From the IMG/VR virus record IMGVR_UViG_3300025391_000491: a stretch of 61,771 nucleotides of DNA. The stretch is one strand, 5' to 3'. The translations under genes were made by a program, and so were the position numbers. How positions within the stretch are numbered: position 1 is the stretch's first letter; the number at the start of each line of letters is the position of its first letter. Of this stretch, positions 11,500-41,702 are shown piece after piece. The notes beneath the pieces are model-generated. The model was not told the DNA's origin. It searched no databases and worked only from the letters and a program-made list of their open reading frames with translations. This DNA comes from an uncultured virus (IMG/VR IMGVR_UViG_3300025391_000491) (lineage: Duplodnaviria; Heunggongvirae; Uroviricota; Caudoviricetes).

Positions 11500-12087
11500 A
11501 TGAAATCGTTATTGTTAGCATTATTAGTAGTAACAGGGGCCGCACAAGCTTCTAACAACTGGACCGGACTAGCTGGTCCAGTGACCAATTCCACTGGATT
11601 ATGCTGGAGAAACAGTGCATGGACACCGGCCACAGCCGAAACCAACTGCGACGGAGCCACACAGCCAGCGATCACAAAATCTGCCGAGCCTGTTGTTGTG
11701 CCCAAAGTTGAAAAATCAGTCGCAATCGTGCAATTGCCTCCAGTGACATATTTGGCACAGTCCTTGTTCGATTTTGACCGTGCCGTGATCAAACCACAAG
11801 GTCTTCACACTCTTGATCAATTGGTAAAACGGTTAAAATCGGTCCATGTTGACAGCGTGATCGTGGTGGGACACACCGACAGTGTGGGCACCGATGCTTA
11901 CAACATGCGATTGGGGCAACGACGAGCTCGAGCAGTGGCTGATTATCTGATCGGGCAAGGCATAGAGGCCAATCGTGTGTTTGCTGACAGCAAAGGCGAA
12001 CGCGAGCCAGCTAGCACCAACAGCACAGCATATGGTCGTTCCATGAATCGACGAGTGGTTGTAGAAGTCTACGGAACAGCCGACTGA
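11500..12087 (+). CDS. ompA: OmpA-family peptidoglycan-binding protein
   Basis: Signal peptide. LFDFD, GHTDSVGTDAYNMRLGQRRA, NRRVVVEV motifs. Confidence 0.9.
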   Translation: MKSLLLALLVVTGAAQASNNWTGLAGPVTNSTGLCWRNSAWTPATAETNCDGATQPAITKSAEPVVVPKVEKSVAIVQLPPVTYLAQSLFDFDRAVIKPQGLHTLDQLVKRLKSVHVDSVIVVGHTDSVGTDAYNMRLGQRRARAVADYLIGQGIEANRVFADSKGEREPASTNSTAYGRSMNRRVVVEVYGTAD

Positions 12088-12176
12088 TGGCCTATTCAGA
12101 AAAGTTACTCGATCATTATGAGAATCCACGCAATGTGGGTTCTTTTGCCAAAGACGAGGAAGGCATAGGCACCTGA
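12087..12176 (+). pseudogene. iscU: orphan 5' fragment of iscU (29 codons)
   Basis: Reads MAYSEKLLDHYENPRNVGSFAKDEEGIGT*, paralleling the N-terminus of the intact copy at 12842. Confidence 0.85.
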
Positions 12177-12252: not shown

Positions 12253-12852
12253 ATGAAAAGCAAGTATGGTTTAATTAAAAAATGTCTTCATTGTAACCAA
12301 GATTTTGAAACAAAACCTAGATACTTAGAGTATTGTTCAACTCCTTGTAAAAATCCAATCAATCGTCCTGGAAACACTGCTTGGAATAAAGGTATTAAAC
12401 TTACTAACGAACAAAAGTCTAAATTAAATATCGAAGGTCTTAAAAAAGGACACGGTTGGAATAAAGGTTTACCAAACAAAAGACAGAGTCAAAAATGGAA
12501 AGAAAATAATCCTAATGCAGACGGCAAATTAAATAATCTAAGAACTAAAAAACCTTGTAACGATGCTCTCAAACTTTATCGAGGAAAAGTTCGTTATGCT
12601 ACATATAGAACTATTAAAGAAATGAAAGTTAATAATGAGTGGGTTCCTGTGTTTGGCAAATATAAACATAGTTGGCAAATAGATCATATCATTCCTATAG
12701 TTCAAGGGTTTGAATTGGGAATAGATCCCTATTTACTTGGTAGTAAAAAAAATATACAATTTATTAAAGGTGAAGAAAACAGATCCAAGTGGGATAGTTT
12801 TCAAACTAACGATGTAATAGAGTCAATAACAGGAGAAACATATGGCTTATAG
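12253..12852 (+). CDS. free-standing HNH homing endonuclease
   Basis: CxxC..CS Zn finger, AWNKG repeats, QIDHIIP..NIQFI..ENRSK. AT-rich. Confidence 0.8.
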   Translation: MKSKYGLIKKCLHCNQDFETKPRYLEYCSTPCKNPINRPGNTAWNKGIKLTNEQKSKLNIEGLKKGHGWNKGLPNKRQSQKWKENNPNADGKLNNLRTKKPCNDALKLYRGKVRYATYRTIKEMKVNNEWVPVFGKYKHSWQIDHIIPIVQGFELGIDPYLLGSKKNIQFIKGEENRSKWDSFQTNDVIESITGETYGL

Positions 12853-14248
12853 TGATGCTGTTTTGGATCATTACGAAAATCCAAGAAATGTGGGATCGTT
12901 TAAGAAGGGTGACGAGGGTGTTGGAGTTGGACTTGTGGGGGCACCTAGTTGTGGAGATGTTTTACAGTTAAGTATAAAGGTAAATGATGTTGGAATTATT
13001 ACAGACGCCCGGTTTAAAACTTACGGCTGTTTAACTAGTAATGCTCCTGTTAATACTCCAACCTGCATTAAAAAAATAAAAGATTTAAAAATCGGCGACG
13101 AGGTGTTGGCCTGGAACGGTGAAAAAATTGTTAATCAAAAAATACAAAATATAATTAAACATTCGGTTGATGTTGATGAGTTGTTGATTATTACTTTTAA
13201 ACGCGAGACGAGTAGAAAAAATACCAATCCTGGCACCTTCTCATTAATTTGCACAAAAGAACATATATTTTGGAATGCCGATAATACACCAGTAGAAGCA
13301 CAACAACTACAAGTAGGTCAAGAGTTGTATGAAATAACCGAACACGAGTTACGAATTCTTACAAATAATAGACATCGCACAGAACTCAAACAAAAAAATA
13401 GCAATAGAATGAAAGAATGGAATCAAATTTTTGATCATTCAGTATTACCACAAAATCAATCCGGGTATGTGTGTAAAGATTTAGAAACCAAAAAGAAAAA
13501 ATCTAGGATTGCTTCTTTAAAAAATTGGAAAGATTCTGATTATGTCAAAAAATGGCAACAGGGAATGGCACGAAGAGATTGGTCTAAACCTACTAGTATT
13601 GAACAAAAATATATTGATTTATTTGAAGAAAACAATGTAGCAATAAAATGGAGTGCTGGAAAGATATGGATTCAAACTGATGCAGGACCAGCAAGCCCAG
13701 ATTTTATTGTTCCTGGTAAGAAAAAATGCATAGAAGTGTATACAAAGCGTATGCCCAAATTCATGCAAGATAGGTCAGAAGAATCAAATTATGTAGTGAA
13801 TCGTCGCAAACAGTTGGCCACAGCCGGCTACGATTCATTATTTTTAGCAATAGAAGATATTGATAAATCATTGTCAGAAGTGCAAAATTTCATTCATAAC
13901 GGAATGAAAATTGTAGATGTTTCACCAATTACTCATTTAAATCAGTTACGCGGTTGTGAAAGAGATGGAAAATCAGTTGTGGTATATGATTTAAAATTAG
14001 AGGGTGGAGCTCATGTGTTTTTCTCTAACAGAGTTGGGTCACATAATTGTGGATCGGCTATTGCATCATCCAGTCTTATCACTGAATGGGTCAAAGGGAA
14101 AACACTGGACGAAGCAGGAAGCATTAAGAACAGCCAAATTGCTGAAGAGTTGGCGCTCCCGCCCGTCAAAATACATTGTAGCATATTGGCAGAATCCGCC
14201 ATTACAGCGGCAATTGACGACTATAAGAAAAGACATAACCTAACATAG
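12842..14248 (+). CDS. iscU: Fe-S scaffold IscU interrupted by an intein
   Basis: YENPRNVG, GAPSCGDV, FKTYG|C..SHN|CGSAIAS, LPPVKIHC. The spliced product is 128 aa. Confidence 0.93.
   Translation: MAYSDAVLDHYENPRNVGSFKKGDEGVGVGLVGAPSCGDVLQLSIKVNDVGIITDARFKTYGCLTSNAPVNTPTCIKKIKDLKIGDEVLAWNGEKIVNQKIQNIIKHSVDVDELLIITFKRETSRKNTNPGTFSLICTKEHIFWNADNTPVEAQQLQVGQELYEITEHELRILTNNRHRTELKQKNSNRMKEWNQIFDHSVLPQNQSGYVCKDLETKKKKSRIASLKNWKDSDYVKKWQQGMARRDWSKPTSIEQKYIDLFEENNVAIKWSAGKIWIQTDAGPASPDFIVPGKKKCIEVYTKRMPKFMQDRSEESNYVVNRRKQLATAGYDSLFLAIEDIDKSLSEVQNFIHNGMKIVDVSPITHLNQLRGCERDGKSVVVYDLKLEGGAHVFFSNRVGSHNCGSAIASSSLITEWVKGKTLDEAGSIKNSQIAEELALPPVKIHCSILAESAITAAIDDYKKRHNLT
13028..14047 (+). mobile_element. 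intein (340 aa) with an internal Vsr/DUF559-like endonuclease
   Basis: Block A CLTSNAPV, block B CTKEHIF, block F VVYDLKL, terminal HN followed by Cys+1. Internal PDF..CIEVY nuclease motif. Confidence 0.9.
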
Positions 14249-14274: not shown

Positions 14275-15021
14275 ATGAATAGGTGTAAATGTGGTTGTGG
14301 AATATCACTTAGAAAAGATAATAGAACTGGATACCAAAAAGGTCATAAACCATGCCCTATTTGCGGTACACTGATAAAGGGCTCAAGTATAGAGTGCTGT
14401 TCAAAATCTTGCTCTGCTAAACTACACTGGCAAAGAAATCCAGATATGGCAGAATCTAGAACCTGGAATGCTGAACGATATGCTACTAGAGAACAGAATA
14501 GAGATACTTGGGTTAAAAACTTGTCAAATGCTTGCAAAGGTAGAACTCCTTGGAATAAAGATACGCAAGGATTACAAGTAGCGTGGAATAAAGGGTTACC
14601 TGGTAATTTTAAGGGAAAGAGGCACAGTTCTGATTATATTGAAAAAGTTAAAAAGACCAATCTTGAAAGATATGGTGTAGAAAATGTTGGACATTTTGCT
14701 AAAACTTCTCCTCGTAGTAAAAAAGAAAAATCTCTAGAAACAATTTTAATTGATTATGAGATCAATGTTAAAATTGGAAAATACAAACCAGATTATGTGA
14801 ATGAATCAACTAAACACATAATAGAAATTTATGGTGATTACTGGCATTGTAATCCAAAATTATTCAATAAAGATTTTTATCATCCTCAGCTGAAAAAGAC
14901 AGCCGAAGAAAAATGGTTATTAGATTTAACTAGACAACAGTATTTTGAATCTTTAGGATACACAGTAGAAATAATATGGGAAAGCGAATTAGATGATTAC
15001 CGTAACCGACACGGCCAGTAA
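14275..15021 (+). CDS. free-standing Vsr/DUF559-like homing endonuclease
   Basis: CKCGCG, PWNK repeats, KTNLERYGV, KPDY..IIEIYGDYWH..IIWESE. Confidence 0.8.
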   Translation: MNRCKCGCGISLRKDNRTGYQKGHKPCPICGTLIKGSSIECCSKSCSAKLHWQRNPDMAESRTWNAERYATREQNRDTWVKNLSNACKGRTPWNKDTQGLQVAWNKGLPGNFKGKRHSSDYIEKVKKTNLERYGVENVGHFAKTSPRSKKEKSLETILIDYEINVKIGKYKPDYVNESTKHIIEIYGDYWHCNPKLFNKDFYHPQLKKTAEEKWLLDLTRQQYFESLGYTVEIIWESELDDYRNRHGQ

Positions 15022-15319
15022 AAAGATTGCGCAGAATCTCCAACGCCGCGGACACGGTGTGGGTATCCGAGTGGGTGTGCGCACCACTGGGTGTTCGGGC
15101 TTGGCCTATGTGTTGGAATATATAGATGACATAACCAAGACTTCTGGGGCCATCGATCATGCTCATGACGATTTTGTCATAAGAATAGACCAACGTGATA
15201 TTGCCTATCTCGAAGGCATGACCATAGACTATGTGCGTCAAGGACTCAACGAAGGATTTGAATTCGTGAATCCCAACGAACGGGATCGTTGCGGGTGTGG
15301 AGAAAGTTTTCGCGTATGA
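14993..15319 (+). CDS. iscA: A-type Fe-S carrier IscA/HesB
   Basis: TTGCSGLAY and NPNERDRCGCGESF motifs. Confidence 0.93.
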   Translation: MITVTDTASKKIAQNLQRRGHGVGIRVGVRTTGCSGLAYVLEYIDDITKTSGAIDHAHDDFVIRIDQRDIAYLEGMTIDYVRQGLNEGFEFVNPNERDRCGCGESFRV

Positions 15320-17966: not shown

Positions 17967-20291
17967 ATGAACCAAATCACCGTAGTAAAACGCAGTGGCC
18001 GTCGCGAACCATTGGATCTAGTCAAATGGCAGGCACAGATAGCCAAGGTATGCCAAGGCATCGCCGACGTCAGCCAAAGCATGATTGAAATCAAAAGCCA
18101 GTTGCATTTTTATGATGGAATCACCACCACGGAAATAGATGGAATCACGCTAAGAAGCATCGTGGATCTGATCGACGTAGAAAGCAATCCGGACATAGGC
18201 AATGTGAACTATCAGTATGTGGCTGGCAAACAACGACTCAGCATGCTGAGGAAAGATGTATATGGCAGCTATGATCCTCCGCATCTTTACGAAATCGTCA
18301 AACGCAATGTTGCTGTAGGCCTGTATTCGTCCGAACTGCTGTCATGGTACAGCGAGGACGATTGGAACCGAATGAACGACATGATCGACCACGACAAGGA
18401 CGAACTGTACGGATATGCTGCTATCGAGCAAATGATTGAAAAATATCTAGTGCGTAACAGAGCAACAAAGGAAATTTATGAAACTCCACAAGTTAGATAC
18501 ATGGTCGCGGCCGCTACTGTGTTTCATGCCGAAGAACCCAACAACGCACGCCTGCGCTACATCAAGGAGTACTACAACTGTGCCAGTGACGGACTGTTCA
18601 CTCTTGCCACTCCTGTGCTTGCAGGGCTTGGAACTCCTACTAAACAGTTTAGTTCATGTGTGCTTATACGTGCAGATGATGATCTGGATAGTATTTTTGC
18701 ATCGGGCGAGATGATGGCCAAATATGCCAGCAAGCGTGCTGGCATTGGTCTAGAAGTGGGACGTCTAAGACCGCTGGGCAGTCCTATTCGTGGTGGCGAA
18801 ATCATGCACACAGGCATGATACCGTTCCTGAAAAAATGGTTTGGTGATCTACGCAGTTGTAGTCAAGGTGGTATTCGCAATGCCAGTGCCACGGTGTTTT
18901 ATCCCATCTGGCATCTACAGTTTGACGATCTTATCGTGCTCAAAAACAACCAAGGTACCGAAGAGACTCGTGTGAGACACATGGACTATGGTGTGGTACT
19001 CAGCGCATTTTTCTGGCGTAGATTCAAGAACCGAGAGAATATTACATTTTTTGATCCCAATCAAGTGCCCGACCTGTATGAAGCTTTCTACAAAGACACT
19101 GCACGATTTGAAGAACTGTATGTGCGTTATGAGAAGCGGCAGGATCTACGTACCAAGACCATGGCAGCCGAGGATGTGTTCAAGGGTGGCATACTCAAGG
19201 AAAGAACTGACACCGGTCGAATCTATCTGGTGTTCATCGACAACGTGCAACGTCAAGGACCGTTTGATCCTGAATTCCATACCATTTATCAGAGTAACTT
19301 GTGTATGGAGATCCTGTTGCCTACCAAGAGCTTCAAACGCTTAGACGATGACGAAGGCAGAATTAGTTTATGCACTCTTGGGTCGCTAAACTGGGGAGCA
19401 TTTCGTAATCCAGAAGATATGCGTAGAGCAAATAGAATTTTGTTGCGTTCACTGAATAACATACTTGACTATCAAGACTTCTTATCTATTCAGAGTAAGT
19501 TAAGCAACGACGAGATTCGCCCTATTGGCATTGGTATTACTAACTTGGCCTATTGGCACGCTAAACGTGGATTAAAATACGGAACCCCGGAAGCATTAGC
19601 CGAAGTTAAAACTTGGACCGAACACCAAGCGTATTACTTAACAGAAGCTACTGTGGAACTTGCTAAGGAGCGAGGAGCTTGTTTACATTCTGCTAAAACA
19701 CGATACGGACAAGGAATATTCCCGTGGGAATTAAGAGCCGCCGGAGTAAACGAACTTACTAACTTTACGCCAGAACTTGACTGGGAAGCATTACGTGAAC
19801 AAATGAAACAATATGGTGTTCGTAATGCCACTGTTATGGCTGTGGCACCTGTAGAATCAAGCAGTGTAGTAATCAACTCAACCAACGGCATTGAAATGCC
19901 CATGAGCCTTATTACCGTTAAAGAATCAAAAGCAGGATCGCTCATCCAGGTGGCTCCTGAATACAACAAGTTAAAATCAAAATATCAACTTATGTGGGAT
20001 CAGAAGGACTGTATTGAATATCTTAAAACCGCAGCTGTTATTGCGGCATACACGGATCAAAGCCTGAGTTCAAATACTTTCTATAATCCTGCACACTATC
20101 CAGATAGAAAAGTTCCTACTACATTGATTGCCAAGAACTTGATGTTGGCCCATAAGTTTGGCCTCAAAACTCTATACTACTCACTAATAAACAAACAAGG
20201 TAGTAAAGGCCAAGATGACGAGGAAGCAACTGAATTGGAAGTGATTGATTTTGACGAATCTGAGGAGGATTGTGTGGCCTGTAAACTATGA
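17967..20291 (+). CDS. nrdA: class Ia ribonucleotide reductase alpha subunit
   Basis: ATP cone, SSCVL, QSNLCMEI, SLCTL, LYY and C-terminal CVAC. Confidence 0.96.
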   Translation: MNQITVVKRSGRREPLDLVKWQAQIAKVCQGIADVSQSMIEIKSQLHFYDGITTTEIDGITLRSIVDLIDVESNPDIGNVNYQYVAGKQRLSMLRKDVYGSYDPPHLYEIVKRNVAVGLYSSELLSWYSEDDWNRMNDMIDHDKDELYGYAAIEQMIEKYLVRNRATKEIYETPQVRYMVAAATVFHAEEPNNARLRYIKEYYNCASDGLFTLATPVLAGLGTPTKQFSSCVLIRADDDLDSIFASGEMMAKYASKRAGIGLEVGRLRPLGSPIRGGEIMHTGMIPFLKKWFGDLRSCSQGGIRNASATVFYPIWHLQFDDLIVLKNNQGTEETRVRHMDYGVVLSAFFWRRFKNRENITFFDPNQVPDLYEAFYKDTARFEELYVRYEKRQDLRTKTMAAEDVFKGGILKERTDTGRIYLVFIDNVQRQGPFDPEFHTIYQSNLCMEILLPTKSFKRLDDDEGRISLCTLGSLNWGAFRNPEDMRRANRILLRSLNNILDYQDFLSIQSKLSNDEIRPIGIGITNLAYWHAKRGLKYGTPEALAEVKTWTEHQAYYLTEATVELAKERGACLHSAKTRYGQGIFPWELRAAGVNELTNFTPELDWEALREQMKQYGVRNATVMAVAPVESSSVVINSTNGIEMPMSLITVKESKAGSLIQVAPEYNKLKSKYQLMWDQKDCIEYLKTAAVIAAYTDQSLSSNTFYNPAHYPDRKVPTTLIAKNLMLAHKFGLKTLYYSLINKQGSKGQDDEEATELEVIDFDESEEDCVACKL

Positions 20292-20524
20292 ACTATCAAC
20301 AGATTTACACTAATCTAATAATAAGTAAAGCACAACGGGCTAATGGCGGTAATGGACCTGCTAAACACAAAGAAGAATCAAAAAACAAAACTAAAGCATC
20401 AATGAAATTAAAGCCGCGAGCTAATAAAGTATGTCCGCATTGTAAAAAAGAAGGCGGATTCTTATCAATGAGTCGTTGGCACTTTGACAACTGTAAGGAA
20501 AAATATGTCACGAGCGCAATATGA
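20288..20524 (+). pseudogene. internally deleted homing endonuclease remnant
   Basis: MNYQQIYTNLI start and CPHC..MSRWHFDNCK tail typical of phage HNH endonucleases, with no catalytic core. Confidence 0.6.
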
Positions 20525-40018: not shown

Positions 40019-41038
40019 ATGGATACTCTAAAACGAATTGGTTTCTGTTGCAAATGGCTCAACGATCCCAGCGAATGCGGCGGCATGAAAGTGAACGCCG
40101 TGGATAGGGAATTGAATGGTCGTAGTACAACCATGCGTTGGTTGCGTGAACATCCCGAGGAAGCCGAACAGCGCCAGTGGGACATCATGAATCACAACAC
40201 CACGGCCGCTGTGAAAATGATTGAACGTGTGGCCACCTTGCCTGCCGAACGCAGAATGGTTAGACTGGGGTCGGAGATGCTACAGGGCTATACCGAGAAA
40301 GACTGGAAAGCGTGGTGGCAACAGATCGATGTGCAAAATCACCTTGAGAGAATATTTGCTTCCATCGGTGAAACGGCCAGACGACTGGACGTGCGACTCA
40401 GTTTCCATCCCGGACAGTTCTGTTGTATAGTCAGCAATAATCCTGGTATTGTGGAAAGATCATTAGAAGAATTAGAATATCATGCTGACATGGCTCGCTG
40501 GATGGGCTACGGTAAATCCAAGTTGGATTTCAAGATCAATGTGCATCTGAGCGGCAAATTAGGTGTTGCTGGATTTGATACAGCTTGGCAAAAAATGAGC
40601 CCGGAACTACGAAATTGTCTTACATTAGAAAATGACGAATATCAAGCCGGTCTTGATGTCCTGTTACCATTAGGCAAGCGTGTTGGCATAGTGCTAGACA
40701 TACATCATCATTTTATCAATACCGGGGAATACATTAACTCGCAAGATCATCGTATTTCTCAAGTAATTGACAGTTGGCAAGGCGTTAGACCAGCAATACA
40801 TTACAGTCAATCAAGAGAAGAACACATTGCCGAATTTATTGATATCATGCCGTCGCTGGAACAACTGTTAACAATCACCAACAAAGCCAAATTGAGATCC
40901 CACAGTGATTTTTACAACAATAAACAACTCAATGCATGGGCGTTGACACATCTAGAGTGGGCAGATATACAAACAGAAAGCAAGGGAAAAAATCTGGCTG
41001 CCGGGCAGCTGTTTAATCAGTGGCAGGAATCCATCTAA
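40019..41038 (+). CDS. uvsE: UV damage endonuclease UvsE
   Basis: RIGFCC, RLSFHPGQF, LTLENDE, VLDIHHH, IHYSQ, HSD, ESKGK. Confidence 0.9.
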   Translation: MDTLKRIGFCCKWLNDPSECGGMKVNAVDRELNGRSTTMRWLREHPEEAEQRQWDIMNHNTTAAVKMIERVATLPAERRMVRLGSEMLQGYTEKDWKAWWQQIDVQNHLERIFASIGETARRLDVRLSFHPGQFCCIVSNNPGIVERSLEELEYHADMARWMGYGKSKLDFKINVHLSGKLGVAGFDTAWQKMSPELRNCLTLENDEYQAGLDVLLPLGKRVGIVLDIHHHFINTGEYINSQDHRISQVIDSWQGVRPAIHYSQSREEHIAEFIDIMPSLEQLLTITNKAKLRSHSDFYNNKQLNAWALTHLEWADIQTESKGKNLAAGQLFNQWQESI

Positions 41039-41702
41039 ATCTTTTTTTTCCGGTCTCGTCGGTATAAGATTTTCTTTTGAGTCCTGCATATTTTATTTTC
41101 TTAGTTTCGCAACCGGCAAGTGTTCTGGCTGATCGTTGTGCCGGGGTCATTTTTGCATTTCGTTGAGTCGCTGATTTTTTATAAGACTCTATTGCTGCTA
41201 AACTGCGTTTTTCGCCTTTGCGAGATTTGAGAGCATTTATTTGATTTTCTCTCAATTTGGGATCCTGCCATCGTGCTTGCATTGATTTTGAAATGGATTC
41301 CGCGCCAGCCCTTGTTTTATTATTCTTTCCTCTATTAGCATCACCACATTTTTTCTTGTTAGCGTCAGTATGAGTCTTGCCGTGGAATCCATTTTGTTCA
41401 CCAAATAATATTGGAGGATTAGCGTTTTTGCAAATGTTGGTTAAATTTTCAATACCAATATCTTCTATCAACTGTTCTTCAAATTGTATAGATTGTTGTT
41501 TGGTTAAGTTGGTTTCGACCAATTCGACTCCGACTTCAAGACCCATTGATTGTATTTTTCTAATAACTCGATCTTTGTGCGGATTATTACACCCACTGGT
41601 AAATTTCAAGTGCGACCAAGCCCGTTGTTCTTTGCCTTCGCCCACATAAAACGTCTTTCCGTTTCTTGGATCAATCAGTCGATATACATAATAATTGTTC
41701 AT
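41013..41702 (-). CDS. GIY-YIG homing endonuclease with NUMOD3
   Basis: YYVYRLIDP..FYVGEG..R, LTN, FHGKTHT. AT-rich. Confidence 0.8.
   Translation of the reverse strand: MNNYYVYRLIDPRNGKTFYVGEGKEQRAWSHLKFTSGCNNPHKDRVIRKIQSMGLEVGVELVETNLTKQQSIQFEEQLIEDIGIENLTNICKNANPPILFGEQNGFHGKTHTDANKKKCGDANRGKNNKTRAGAESISKSMQARWQDPKLRENQINALKSRKGEKRSLAAIESYKKSATQRNAKMTPAQRSARTLAGCETKKIKYAGLKRKSYTDETGKKRFRWIPATD

Follow-up and report, generated by a model that had tools for sequence, protein, structure and literature searches.

Canonical class-1 homing inteins have a Hint fold with Cys1, a block B TxxH motif, a block F Asp, a terminal His-Asn pair and a Cys at position +1; their nuclease is inserted within the Hint domain and their sites are found as occupied and empty alleles. 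All of these traits are shared by an intein in the DNA of an uncultured virus (Caudoviricetes; IMG/VR record IMGVR_UViG_3300025391_000491), of which the whole stretch of 61,771 nucleotides (nt) was analyzed and is called the window in the following. The intein splits a phage iscU gene at the codon of Cys63 and differs from the canonical class in its host, IscU, and in its nuclease, which is of the Vsr type and in frame. The feature is ordinary in its chemistry, but unusual in host and nuclease. It is probably a selfish class-1 intein in an auxiliary phage gene, which splices in the standard manner, occupies the invariant Cys63 and is spread by its Vsr-type nuclease. This adds an intein host outside the usual replication and nucleotide set.

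Within the accessible text of an actinobacteriophage survey, 712 inteins with a canonical LAGLIDADG nuclease are counted against 72 others (10.1101/2025.01.02.630785). Vsr-like homing endonucleases are described in the available part of PMC2677866 as free-standing genes, within group I introns and between the two halves of split inteins, and as antisense genes inside inteins in that of 10.1101/2025.01.02.630785. A contiguous intein with an in-frame Vsr nuclease was found in neither of these parts, and the host table in the supplement of the latter may list some. I-Bth0305I of the EDxHD family resembles the nuclease of the IscU intein in having a helical or basic N-terminal region followed by a Vsr-type core with the residues E, PD and E (PMC2677866 and PMC3239194, accessible text; 3R3P). 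According to the available part of PMC3239194, the EDxHD family is defined by its His, and I-Bth0305I cuts directly beside its insertion site. In contrast, the nuclease of the IscU intein has no general-base His (His213 of I-Bth0305I) and lies in frame inside a contiguous intein.

The intein of Mycobacterium tuberculosis SufB reportedly senses stress, and that of Pyrococcus abyssi MoaA lies inside the radical-SAM motif CxxxCxxC with a ligand Cys at +1. The SufB (Pps1) intein is similar to the IscU intein in Cys1 and Cys+1, in the presence of an endonuclease and in a host acting in iron-sulfur (Fe-S) assembly, but it belongs to the SUF rather than the ISC system and to a cellular gene rather than an accessory phage gene (PMC8891592, available part). 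MoaA is also an Fe-S-related host; it is oxygen-labile and its splicing is blocked by a disulfide, as far as the available text of PMC10663303 goes. There, a Cys of the N-extein traps Cys1, whereas the IscU N-extein (ITDARFKTYG) has no adjacent Cys and its nearest upstream Cys is C37. Hence, a trap in IscU would have to involve C37 or C106 in the folded protein. Splicing is inhibited by zinc and copper, which bind to active-site residues (PMC7765530, available part). A preliminary description of this DNA had named the SufB intein as the Fe-S precedent; it is one, but not the only one, since the redox-trapped MoaA intein (PMC10663303) is another.

Phage genes for IscU and IscA were described from large T4-like environmental phages, which carry IscU, an A-type carrier, glutaredoxin, ClpP and radical SAM proteins (PMC5332604). 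The same set is present in the window, while the word 'intein' has no occurrence in the accessible text of that paper. Neither MoaA nor IscU inteins are mentioned in the available parts of the reviews PMC7765530 and PMC4760082. In agreement with the preliminary description, which knew of none, no IscU intein was found in the accessible texts of the literature searched, for which NifU had been included; InBase and subscription journals lay outside this search and may list inteins of IscU/NifU or with an in-frame Vsr nuclease. The parts of the element are of known kinds, whereas the host gene, the pattern of three insertion sites and the His-less in-frame Vsr nuclease appear to be undescribed.

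The split iscU gene and its intein

The precursor gene is composed of the following parts:

12842-14248, + strand: iscU precursor open reading frame (ORF), 468 amino acids (aa), open frame
12842..13027, + strand: IscU N-extein, residues 1-62 (with C37 and D39), ending FKTYG
13028..14047, + strand: class-1 intein, 340 aa, with C1, T76/H79, D321, H339 and N340
13028..13363, + strand: N-terminal part of the Hint domain, intein residues ~1-112; all-beta in the model, matching inteins and bacterial intein-like domains (BILs) in Foldseek and structure alignment
13364..13585, + strand: basic helical linker, intein residues ~113-186, candidate DNA-binding region; helical in the model with modest confidence (pLDDT, predicted local distance difference test)
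13586..13903, + strand: in-frame Vsr-like nuclease domain, intein residues ~187-292, according to structure match and conservation
13904..14047, + strand: C-terminal part of the Hint domain with blocks F and G
14048..14248, + strand: IscU C-extein, residues 63-128, beginning with the +1 nucleophile Cys63 and holding H105 and C106

The insert divides the frame into 62 + 340 + 66 aa (N-extein, insert and C-extein). It starts with Cys1, contains TKEH at intein positions 76-79 and VYDL at 319-322, and ends in His-Asn, after which the C-extein begins with CGSAIAS. When the insert was excised in silico, a 128-aa IscU with C37, D39, C63, H105 and C106 was obtained, which we take to be the ligand set of IscU. 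Given this ligand set, unspliced IscU would lack its normal scaffold site. The NCBIfam model TIGR01999 (iscU) matched the precursor in two stretches with 196.1 bits (cut-off 192.4).

Evidence for Hint identity from sequence profiles alone is weak. The Pfam Hint models remained under their cut-offs (PF01079, E-value 8e-5, 22.8 bits vs 29.7; PF07591, 19.4 vs 27.7), a diverged relative (P0168) passed the cut-off of PF14890, and when PDB sequences were searched with the intein profile, the TIM-barrel and ABC-binding matches obtained were spurious and those to inteins were only weak. The Hint fold is settled by the structure model. An AlphaFold2 model of the insert, built from an alignment of 24 sequences (mean pLDDT 73.8), was matched to the Hint domain 2lwy (Z-score 17.8, 1.8 Å, 131 residues) and to the NpuDnaB intein (Z-score 16.5), and Foldseek agreed on the Hint assignment. 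In a model of the precursor (80 sequences, pLDDT 79.5), both exteins jointly aligned to the IscU structure 4eb5_C (Z-score 20.5, 1.2 Å, 120 residues). The models thus support a canonical class-1 intein at the conserved Cys63 of IscU, for which splicing is predicted. The preliminary description had claimed that an intein splits IscU at Cys63, that its removal gives a 128-aa IscU with C37, C63, H105 and C106, and that the +1 splicing nucleophile is itself a cluster ligand; these claims are borne out by the layout of the frame together with the modeled Hint fold, by the in-silico product and by the conserved IscU Cys63 at +1, respectively. The search with Hint and intein hidden Markov models, which it had suggested, gave Pfam matches under cut-off only, and the Hint domain was recognized by the structure model instead.

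A protein search gave 726 matches among 8000 scored candidates. The best 120 of these, with 64-97% identity and nearly all of full length, were aligned with the query (121 rows). Cys1 was present in 120/121 rows (one record is without it), and T76, H79, D321, H339, N340 and Cys+1 were present in 121/121. Among the extein ligands, C37 was found in 119/121 rows and H105 and C106 in all 121. IMG/VR contained 39 intein-bearing loci, 35 of which had both exteins plus the insert. No match to the intein was found in GenBank phages; the 11 GenBank phage records matching the window protein (P0001) align to its extein parts only. A scan of GTDB genomes resulted in one locus from 34 pattern matches, namely a 2.1-kb contig with iscA and an occupied iscU in a Crocinitomicaceae metagenome-assembled genome. 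This contig (JBDNIA010000044.1) is possibly a mis-binned phage fragment and was not used for host assignment. An assembly artefact or a chance motif was ruled out by the approximately 120, mostly full-length homologs, the empty alleles described below and contigs spanning the junctions.

In the intein, no Pfam match to a LAGLIDADG (E-value up to 0.1) or HNH nuclease was found; DOD inteins align mainly via the Hint part, and the central domain, on which the preliminary description was silent, matches Vsr-type folds. Its best structure match outside Hint and IscU is the catalytic domain of I-Bth0305I (3r3p), with Z-scores of 9.0 in the insert model and 9.9 in the precursor model over 89-94 of 98 residues (root mean square deviation 3.1-3.5). 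The next matches are the DUF559-like 3hrl and Vsr itself (1cw0), with Z-scores of 7.3-8.6 (7.3-8.0 for 1cw0). These values are middling, yet nearly the whole target domain is covered. E192, P224-D225, E236, R249, R259 and G267 are invariant in 121/121 rows and D248 is present in 120/121, whereby E192, D225 and E236 were matched to the EDxHD residues by motif and not by residue-level superposition. The nuclease is Vsr-like and, strictly, no EDxHD member. P0001 gave no NUMOD match; free-standing relatives from a search with the intein profile bear NUMOD3 and align across linker and nuclease. The linker, which may bind DNA, is the most variable part of the intein (mean pN 0.277; pN and pS, proportions of non-synonymous and synonymous differences).

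Selection was analyzed with 24 de-duplicated genes (276 pairs), for which saturation leaves 3 to 28 usable pairs per region. The mean pN of the nuclease was 0.181 compared to 0.167 for the exteins, at a saturated pS of 0.72-0.78, and its median dN/dS was 0.13 on the 25 of 276 pairs that were unsaturated. These substitution patterns show purifying selection on the nuclease that is as strong as that on IscU. The acidic residues and the PD motif recur in ~87 of 151 scanned sequences, most of which are distantly related and belong to other host genes. The architecture of a contiguous intein with an in-frame, His-less Vsr-type nuclease is spread over many host genes.

Empty alleles, footprint and putative flanking cassettes

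By the neighboring exonuclease gene, 80 loci were fetched regardless of the state of iscU (best 80 of at least 598). In 75 of them iscU was empty, with a gap of exactly 0 nt at the insertion site, one was occupied, one was partial, and three had no iscU in the fetched stretch. The single occupied locus is the window's own sequence (identical). Accordingly, the search for occupied and empty phage alleles proposed by the preliminary description yielded both kinds, in this set with one occupied locus against 75 empty ones. The exonuclease of the window is sister to those of L041 and L042, both from phages with empty alleles (support 100/99).

The window was compared with L042, its nearest empty allele. 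Left of the intein, 0/54 mismatches were counted (12974-13027, positions -54 to -1). Further upstream (-90 to -55) the N-extein diverges with 16/36 mismatches, whereby ungapped upstream comparisons are distorted by indels and were used near the junction only. Right of the intein, 14/63 mismatches are followed by 2/69 in the next stretch. The excess of 14/63 over 2/123 in the flanking stretches is significant (Fisher's test, p 6e-6) and marks the following feature:

14048..14110, + strand: probable co-conversion tract arriving with the intein, with a mismatch excess vs L042 and 1 aa change only

The five sequences closest to this tract all come from occupied alleles, with L012 and L007 first. 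At the 3' end of the intein, L012, L007 and L008 are closest to the window (7/60), their tracts also being the closest (11-12/63). The footprint follows the pattern expected of break repair with one-sided co-conversion; homing is the best reading, but not proven. In several pairs, intein DNA was much more similar than extein DNA, with a pS of 0.28 vs 0.74 for L018/L020, 0.19 vs 0.56 for L007/L012, and 0.30 vs 0.74 and 0.02 vs 0.19 for further pairs. In addition, the intein is bridged in contigs of the sequencing runs X6 and X16, the letters of X6 being those of an L042-type empty allele. Thus, empty alleles of the recipient type share the habitat with the element.

The ends of the iscU gene are flanked by further elements:

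12087..12176, + strand: orphaned iscU 5' stub of 29 codons, terminated by a stop codon, translating as an IscU N-terminus; probable original gene start
12253..12852, + strand: low-GC free-standing ORF (GC 0.31), weakly HNH-like, overlapping the iscU start
14275..15021, + strand: free-standing ORF, Vsr-like, in which the E-D-x-H-D pattern is complete, His included (TIGR00632 vsr, E-value 1.1e-5, under cut-off)

The stub is identical to the start of L042 in 73/87 nt, compared to 53/87 for the start now in use, and the 5' ~44 codons of the working iscU look foreign relative to L042. Beyond loci identical to the window, the search for upstream iscU stubs gave weak matches only (E-value ~0.5), in L028, L029 and L050. 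The upstream ORF, with a Pfam HNH match of E-value 0.076 only and a match to phrog_5104 (function unknown, 6e-6), may be the homing endonuclease that brought the replacement 5' end; homologs with 55-64% identity were found in three other occupied iscU loci (L006, L009 and L030). At the other end, the window departs from L042 immediately behind the codon of Cys106 (24/57 mismatches). The new 3' end encodes Ser in the AED motif at precursor position 452, where at least ~90% of the aligned homologs have Asp, and in a contig of run X18, position 14179 is linked to 14993 through letters of the L042 type. The downstream ORF, which matches the homing endonuclease family phrog_3339 (6.7e-4), is a candidate homing endonuclease linked to the replaced 3' end. 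Its homologs occur in only one other occupied locus, compared to the three of the upstream ORF, and it is not closely akin to the nuclease of the intein (BLASTP E-value 0.06).

Since near-identical L042-type stretches lie between the intein tract and both replacements, three separate events are indicated. From these comparisons we infer that the 5' end of iscU near the Cys37 motif and its 3' end near the Cys106 motif were replaced by two intron-less cassettes, in addition to the intein at Cys63. The window would then keep the footprints of apparently three separate homing events in one gene of 387 nt, a pattern which fits the short conserved iscU as a homing hotspot.

Inteins at other cysteines and alternatives to homing

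Related proteins bear inteins at the other ligand cysteines as well. P0121 has a second, mini-intein of 138 aa before Cys37. A search with its Cys37 region resulted in 40 proteins, of which 39 have an insert of 144-198 aa at this site and one is a fragment; at least some are giant-viral, P0147 being located on a contig with a GVMAG name, and N-terminal extensions occur in several. These Cys37 mini-inteins (P0121, P0122-P0160; L122-L128) are a separate family. Five proteins are intein-bearing at both Cys37 and Cys63. In three-domain NifU, P0207 and 21 relatives (P0311-P0331) have an intein of 148-317 aa before the Cys106 equivalent (22/22), of which six are mini-inteins of 148-160 aa. The NifU inteins continue after Cys1 with the unusual start SPYFMPV and end in Lys-Asn. 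Cys63 inteins also exist as mini forms (P0164, P0182) and in divergent, bacterial-looking IscU. Thus, inteins have independent sites at each of the three cluster-ligand cysteines in the 128-aa IscU/NifU scaffold.

Relatives found with the intein profile (best 150 of 499 representatives at E-values up to 0.001) were sorted by regular expressions into 53 radical SAM proteins with the insert between CxxxCxx and the following C, 19 IscU/NifU, 42 other hosts and 36 free-standing proteins or fragments; P0179, placed in IscU/NifU by this sorting, is a radical SAM protein by Pfam. The radical SAM hosts are presumably QueE-like, judged from their motifs. By the same regular-expression count, the insertion site is an Fe-S ligand cysteine in about 72 of about 114 relatives with an intein, so that insertion before such a ligand is common in this clade. 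Members also occur in PolB, NrdD, QueC and DegT-type aminotransferases. Related Vsr-type inteins before the last Cys of CxxxCxxC are those of P0178-P0310 (~54 radical SAM proteins). Three free-standing proteins of 312-334 aa (P0170, P0171, P0173) combine Hint and Vsr-like parts without Cys1, block B His and terminal Asn, and are apparent splicing-dead intein derivatives.

In the homing mechanism favored here, the 468-aa precursor would be translated and spliced by an N-S shift at Cys1, transfer to Cys63 and cyclization of Asn340, from which a normal IscU of 128 aa and the free intein of 340 aa would result. The in-frame Vsr-type nuclease would cut the empty iscU in co-infecting phages at the Gly62/Cys63 codons or directly 3' of them, and repair from the occupied allele would copy the intein plus ~60 nt of the donor's 3' exon. 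The site would be used because the invariant Cys63 supplies the required +1 nucleophile, so that imprecise loss would not be tolerated; Cys63, in turn, is invariant because it is a cluster ligand. The anatomy, the fold, the conservation of the residues for splicing, the purifying selection on the nuclease, the predominance of empty alleles in the nearest relatives and the mosaic footprint were observed, whereas splicing itself, cleavage of DNA, the position of the cut and the direction in which the element moved are deduced in this scheme.

Several observations weigh against this mechanism. The catalytic His of EDxHD is missing, as the stretch from E236 to G267 contains none and the spaced position is taken by Pro243 in 121/121 rows; activity of the nuclease is therefore not guaranteed. 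A single clade of occupied alleles was not rejected by approximately unbiased (AU) tests, neither on iscU extein DNA (p 0.55) nor on the exonuclease (40/78 rows, p 0.13). In the extein tree, parsimony takes 7 changes and the starred branches force 3, but due to the AU results repeated gain is not claimed from the trees. Part of the pattern is built in by selecting the empty loci that are nearest to the window, and the footprint depends on a single comparison pair. Over all alleles, the window tract was not significantly nearer to the occupied than to the empty ones (p 0.15; medians 18 vs 19); the tract of L042 itself is slightly closer to occupied alleles, too (p 0.04). Intein pairs are mosaic within the intein, pointing to ordinary recombination as well, the two flanking nuclease ORFs could have moved the block, and the window may derive from run X6, which is not independent.

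The preliminary description had inferred that splicing could gate phage Fe-S assembly by redox or metal state, an idea that gains no support from the present results. This alternative is a domesticated sensor, in which the IscU halves are folded and C37, C63 (+1), H105, C106 and Cys1 bind Zn or Fe or form a disulfide, whereupon splicing pauses under stress and IscU is released when clusters can be built. The redox-trapped MoaA intein (PMC10663303), the inhibition of splicing by zinc and copper (PMC7765530) and the SufB intein (PMC8891592) speak for such a function, within the available parts of these sources. The precursor model likewise assembles the exteins into the native IscU fold, though AlphaFold may do so from familiarity. 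However, no extein Cys lies next to Cys1, 75 of the 76 nearest scorable alleles are without the element, the nuclease is intact and under selection, and a co-conversion footprint is present. Any Cys-dependent intein would be somewhat sensitive to oxidants or Zn, so that sensitivity alone is no proof of adaptation. The position of about 72 of about 114 relatives at Fe-S ligands favors a sensor, but the +1 Cys is a chemical requirement and invariant cysteines are mostly metal ligands; related inteins at Cys37, Cys63, Cys106 and other conserved cysteines are expected if any invariant motif Cys suits, and the same clade occupies DNA polymerase B, NrdD, QueC and DegT-type aminotransferases. Similarly, nuclease-free mini-inteins persist at Cys37 (39/40), Cys106 (6/22) and Cys63 (P0164, P0182), but mini-inteins are the expected late stage of the homing cycle. 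We consider a sensor unlikely. Doubtful to the same degree is the wider proposal that inteins at the ligand cysteines of IscU constitute a post-translational Fe-S checkpoint, the repeated and independent capture of the three cysteines and the long-lived nuclease-free forms in phages, giant viruses and bacteria reflecting selection for a switch that is spread by a His-less in-frame Vsr nuclease with an undescribed active site. With full-length, mini and empty alleles at three ligands of a small, well-studied extein, a clean system is available to distinguish sensor from parasite.

The intein might also be a splicing-competent passenger, whose nuclease no longer cuts and which moves by ordinary recombination in co-infections or by co-conversion that a flanking endonuclease drives. 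The missing EDxHD His, the mosaic tracts inside inteins, the HNH-like and the Vsr-like ORF flanking a gene whose ends are replaced, and the monophyly of occupied alleles, which was not rejected, would all be accommodated. Yet the acidic residues and PD are invariant in 121/121 rows and recur in ~87/151, dN/dS of the nuclease is as low as that of the exteins, L042-type stretches part the intein tract from the flanking replacements, indicating three events, and homologs of the upstream and downstream ORFs are limited to three and one other occupied loci, respectively. A mere passenger is thus rather improbable. That no working intein is present, the locus being either a chimera of the assembly or a fusion, dead or capable of cleavage only (BIL-like), which inactivates the phage IscU, could be argued from the Pfam intein models under cut-off and from a bacterial intein-like domain as the top structure match. 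This is hardly credible in view of ~120 independent homologs with invariant junctions and intact extein ligands, the exact zero-gap correspondence with 75 empty alleles, and continuous contigs across the junctions in public runs.

Phage context

Downstream of iscU, the following gene was annotated:

14993..15319, + strand: iscA (A-type carrier), the usual iscU neighbor in these phages (TIGR02011, 1e-36; TIGR00049 above cut-off)

It was present in 77/80 of the loci picked by the exonuclease. Further genes of the window encode primase, helicase, NrdAB, glutaredoxin, ligase, ClpP/ClpX-like and radical-SAM proteins. The nearest virus records have 90-213 kb at an estimated completeness of 26-61%, and the stretch occurs in runs from freshwater or lake metagenomes, with no RNA run listed; the source is a large freshwater phage. 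IscS (PF00266) gave no match in five phage records of 26-61% completeness, which does not show its absence.

Matches to PHROG homing-endonuclease families were also obtained for 20288-20524, a short ORF between nrdA and nrdB, and for 41013-41702 (229 aa). Judged from such matches, the phage carries several homing-endonuclease genes or remnants. On the same 90-kb contig as an iscU identical to that of the window, a second intein-like match (G002:C1:15251-15547) was over the cut-off of PF14890; it contains one TAA and is possibly a split or broken intein.

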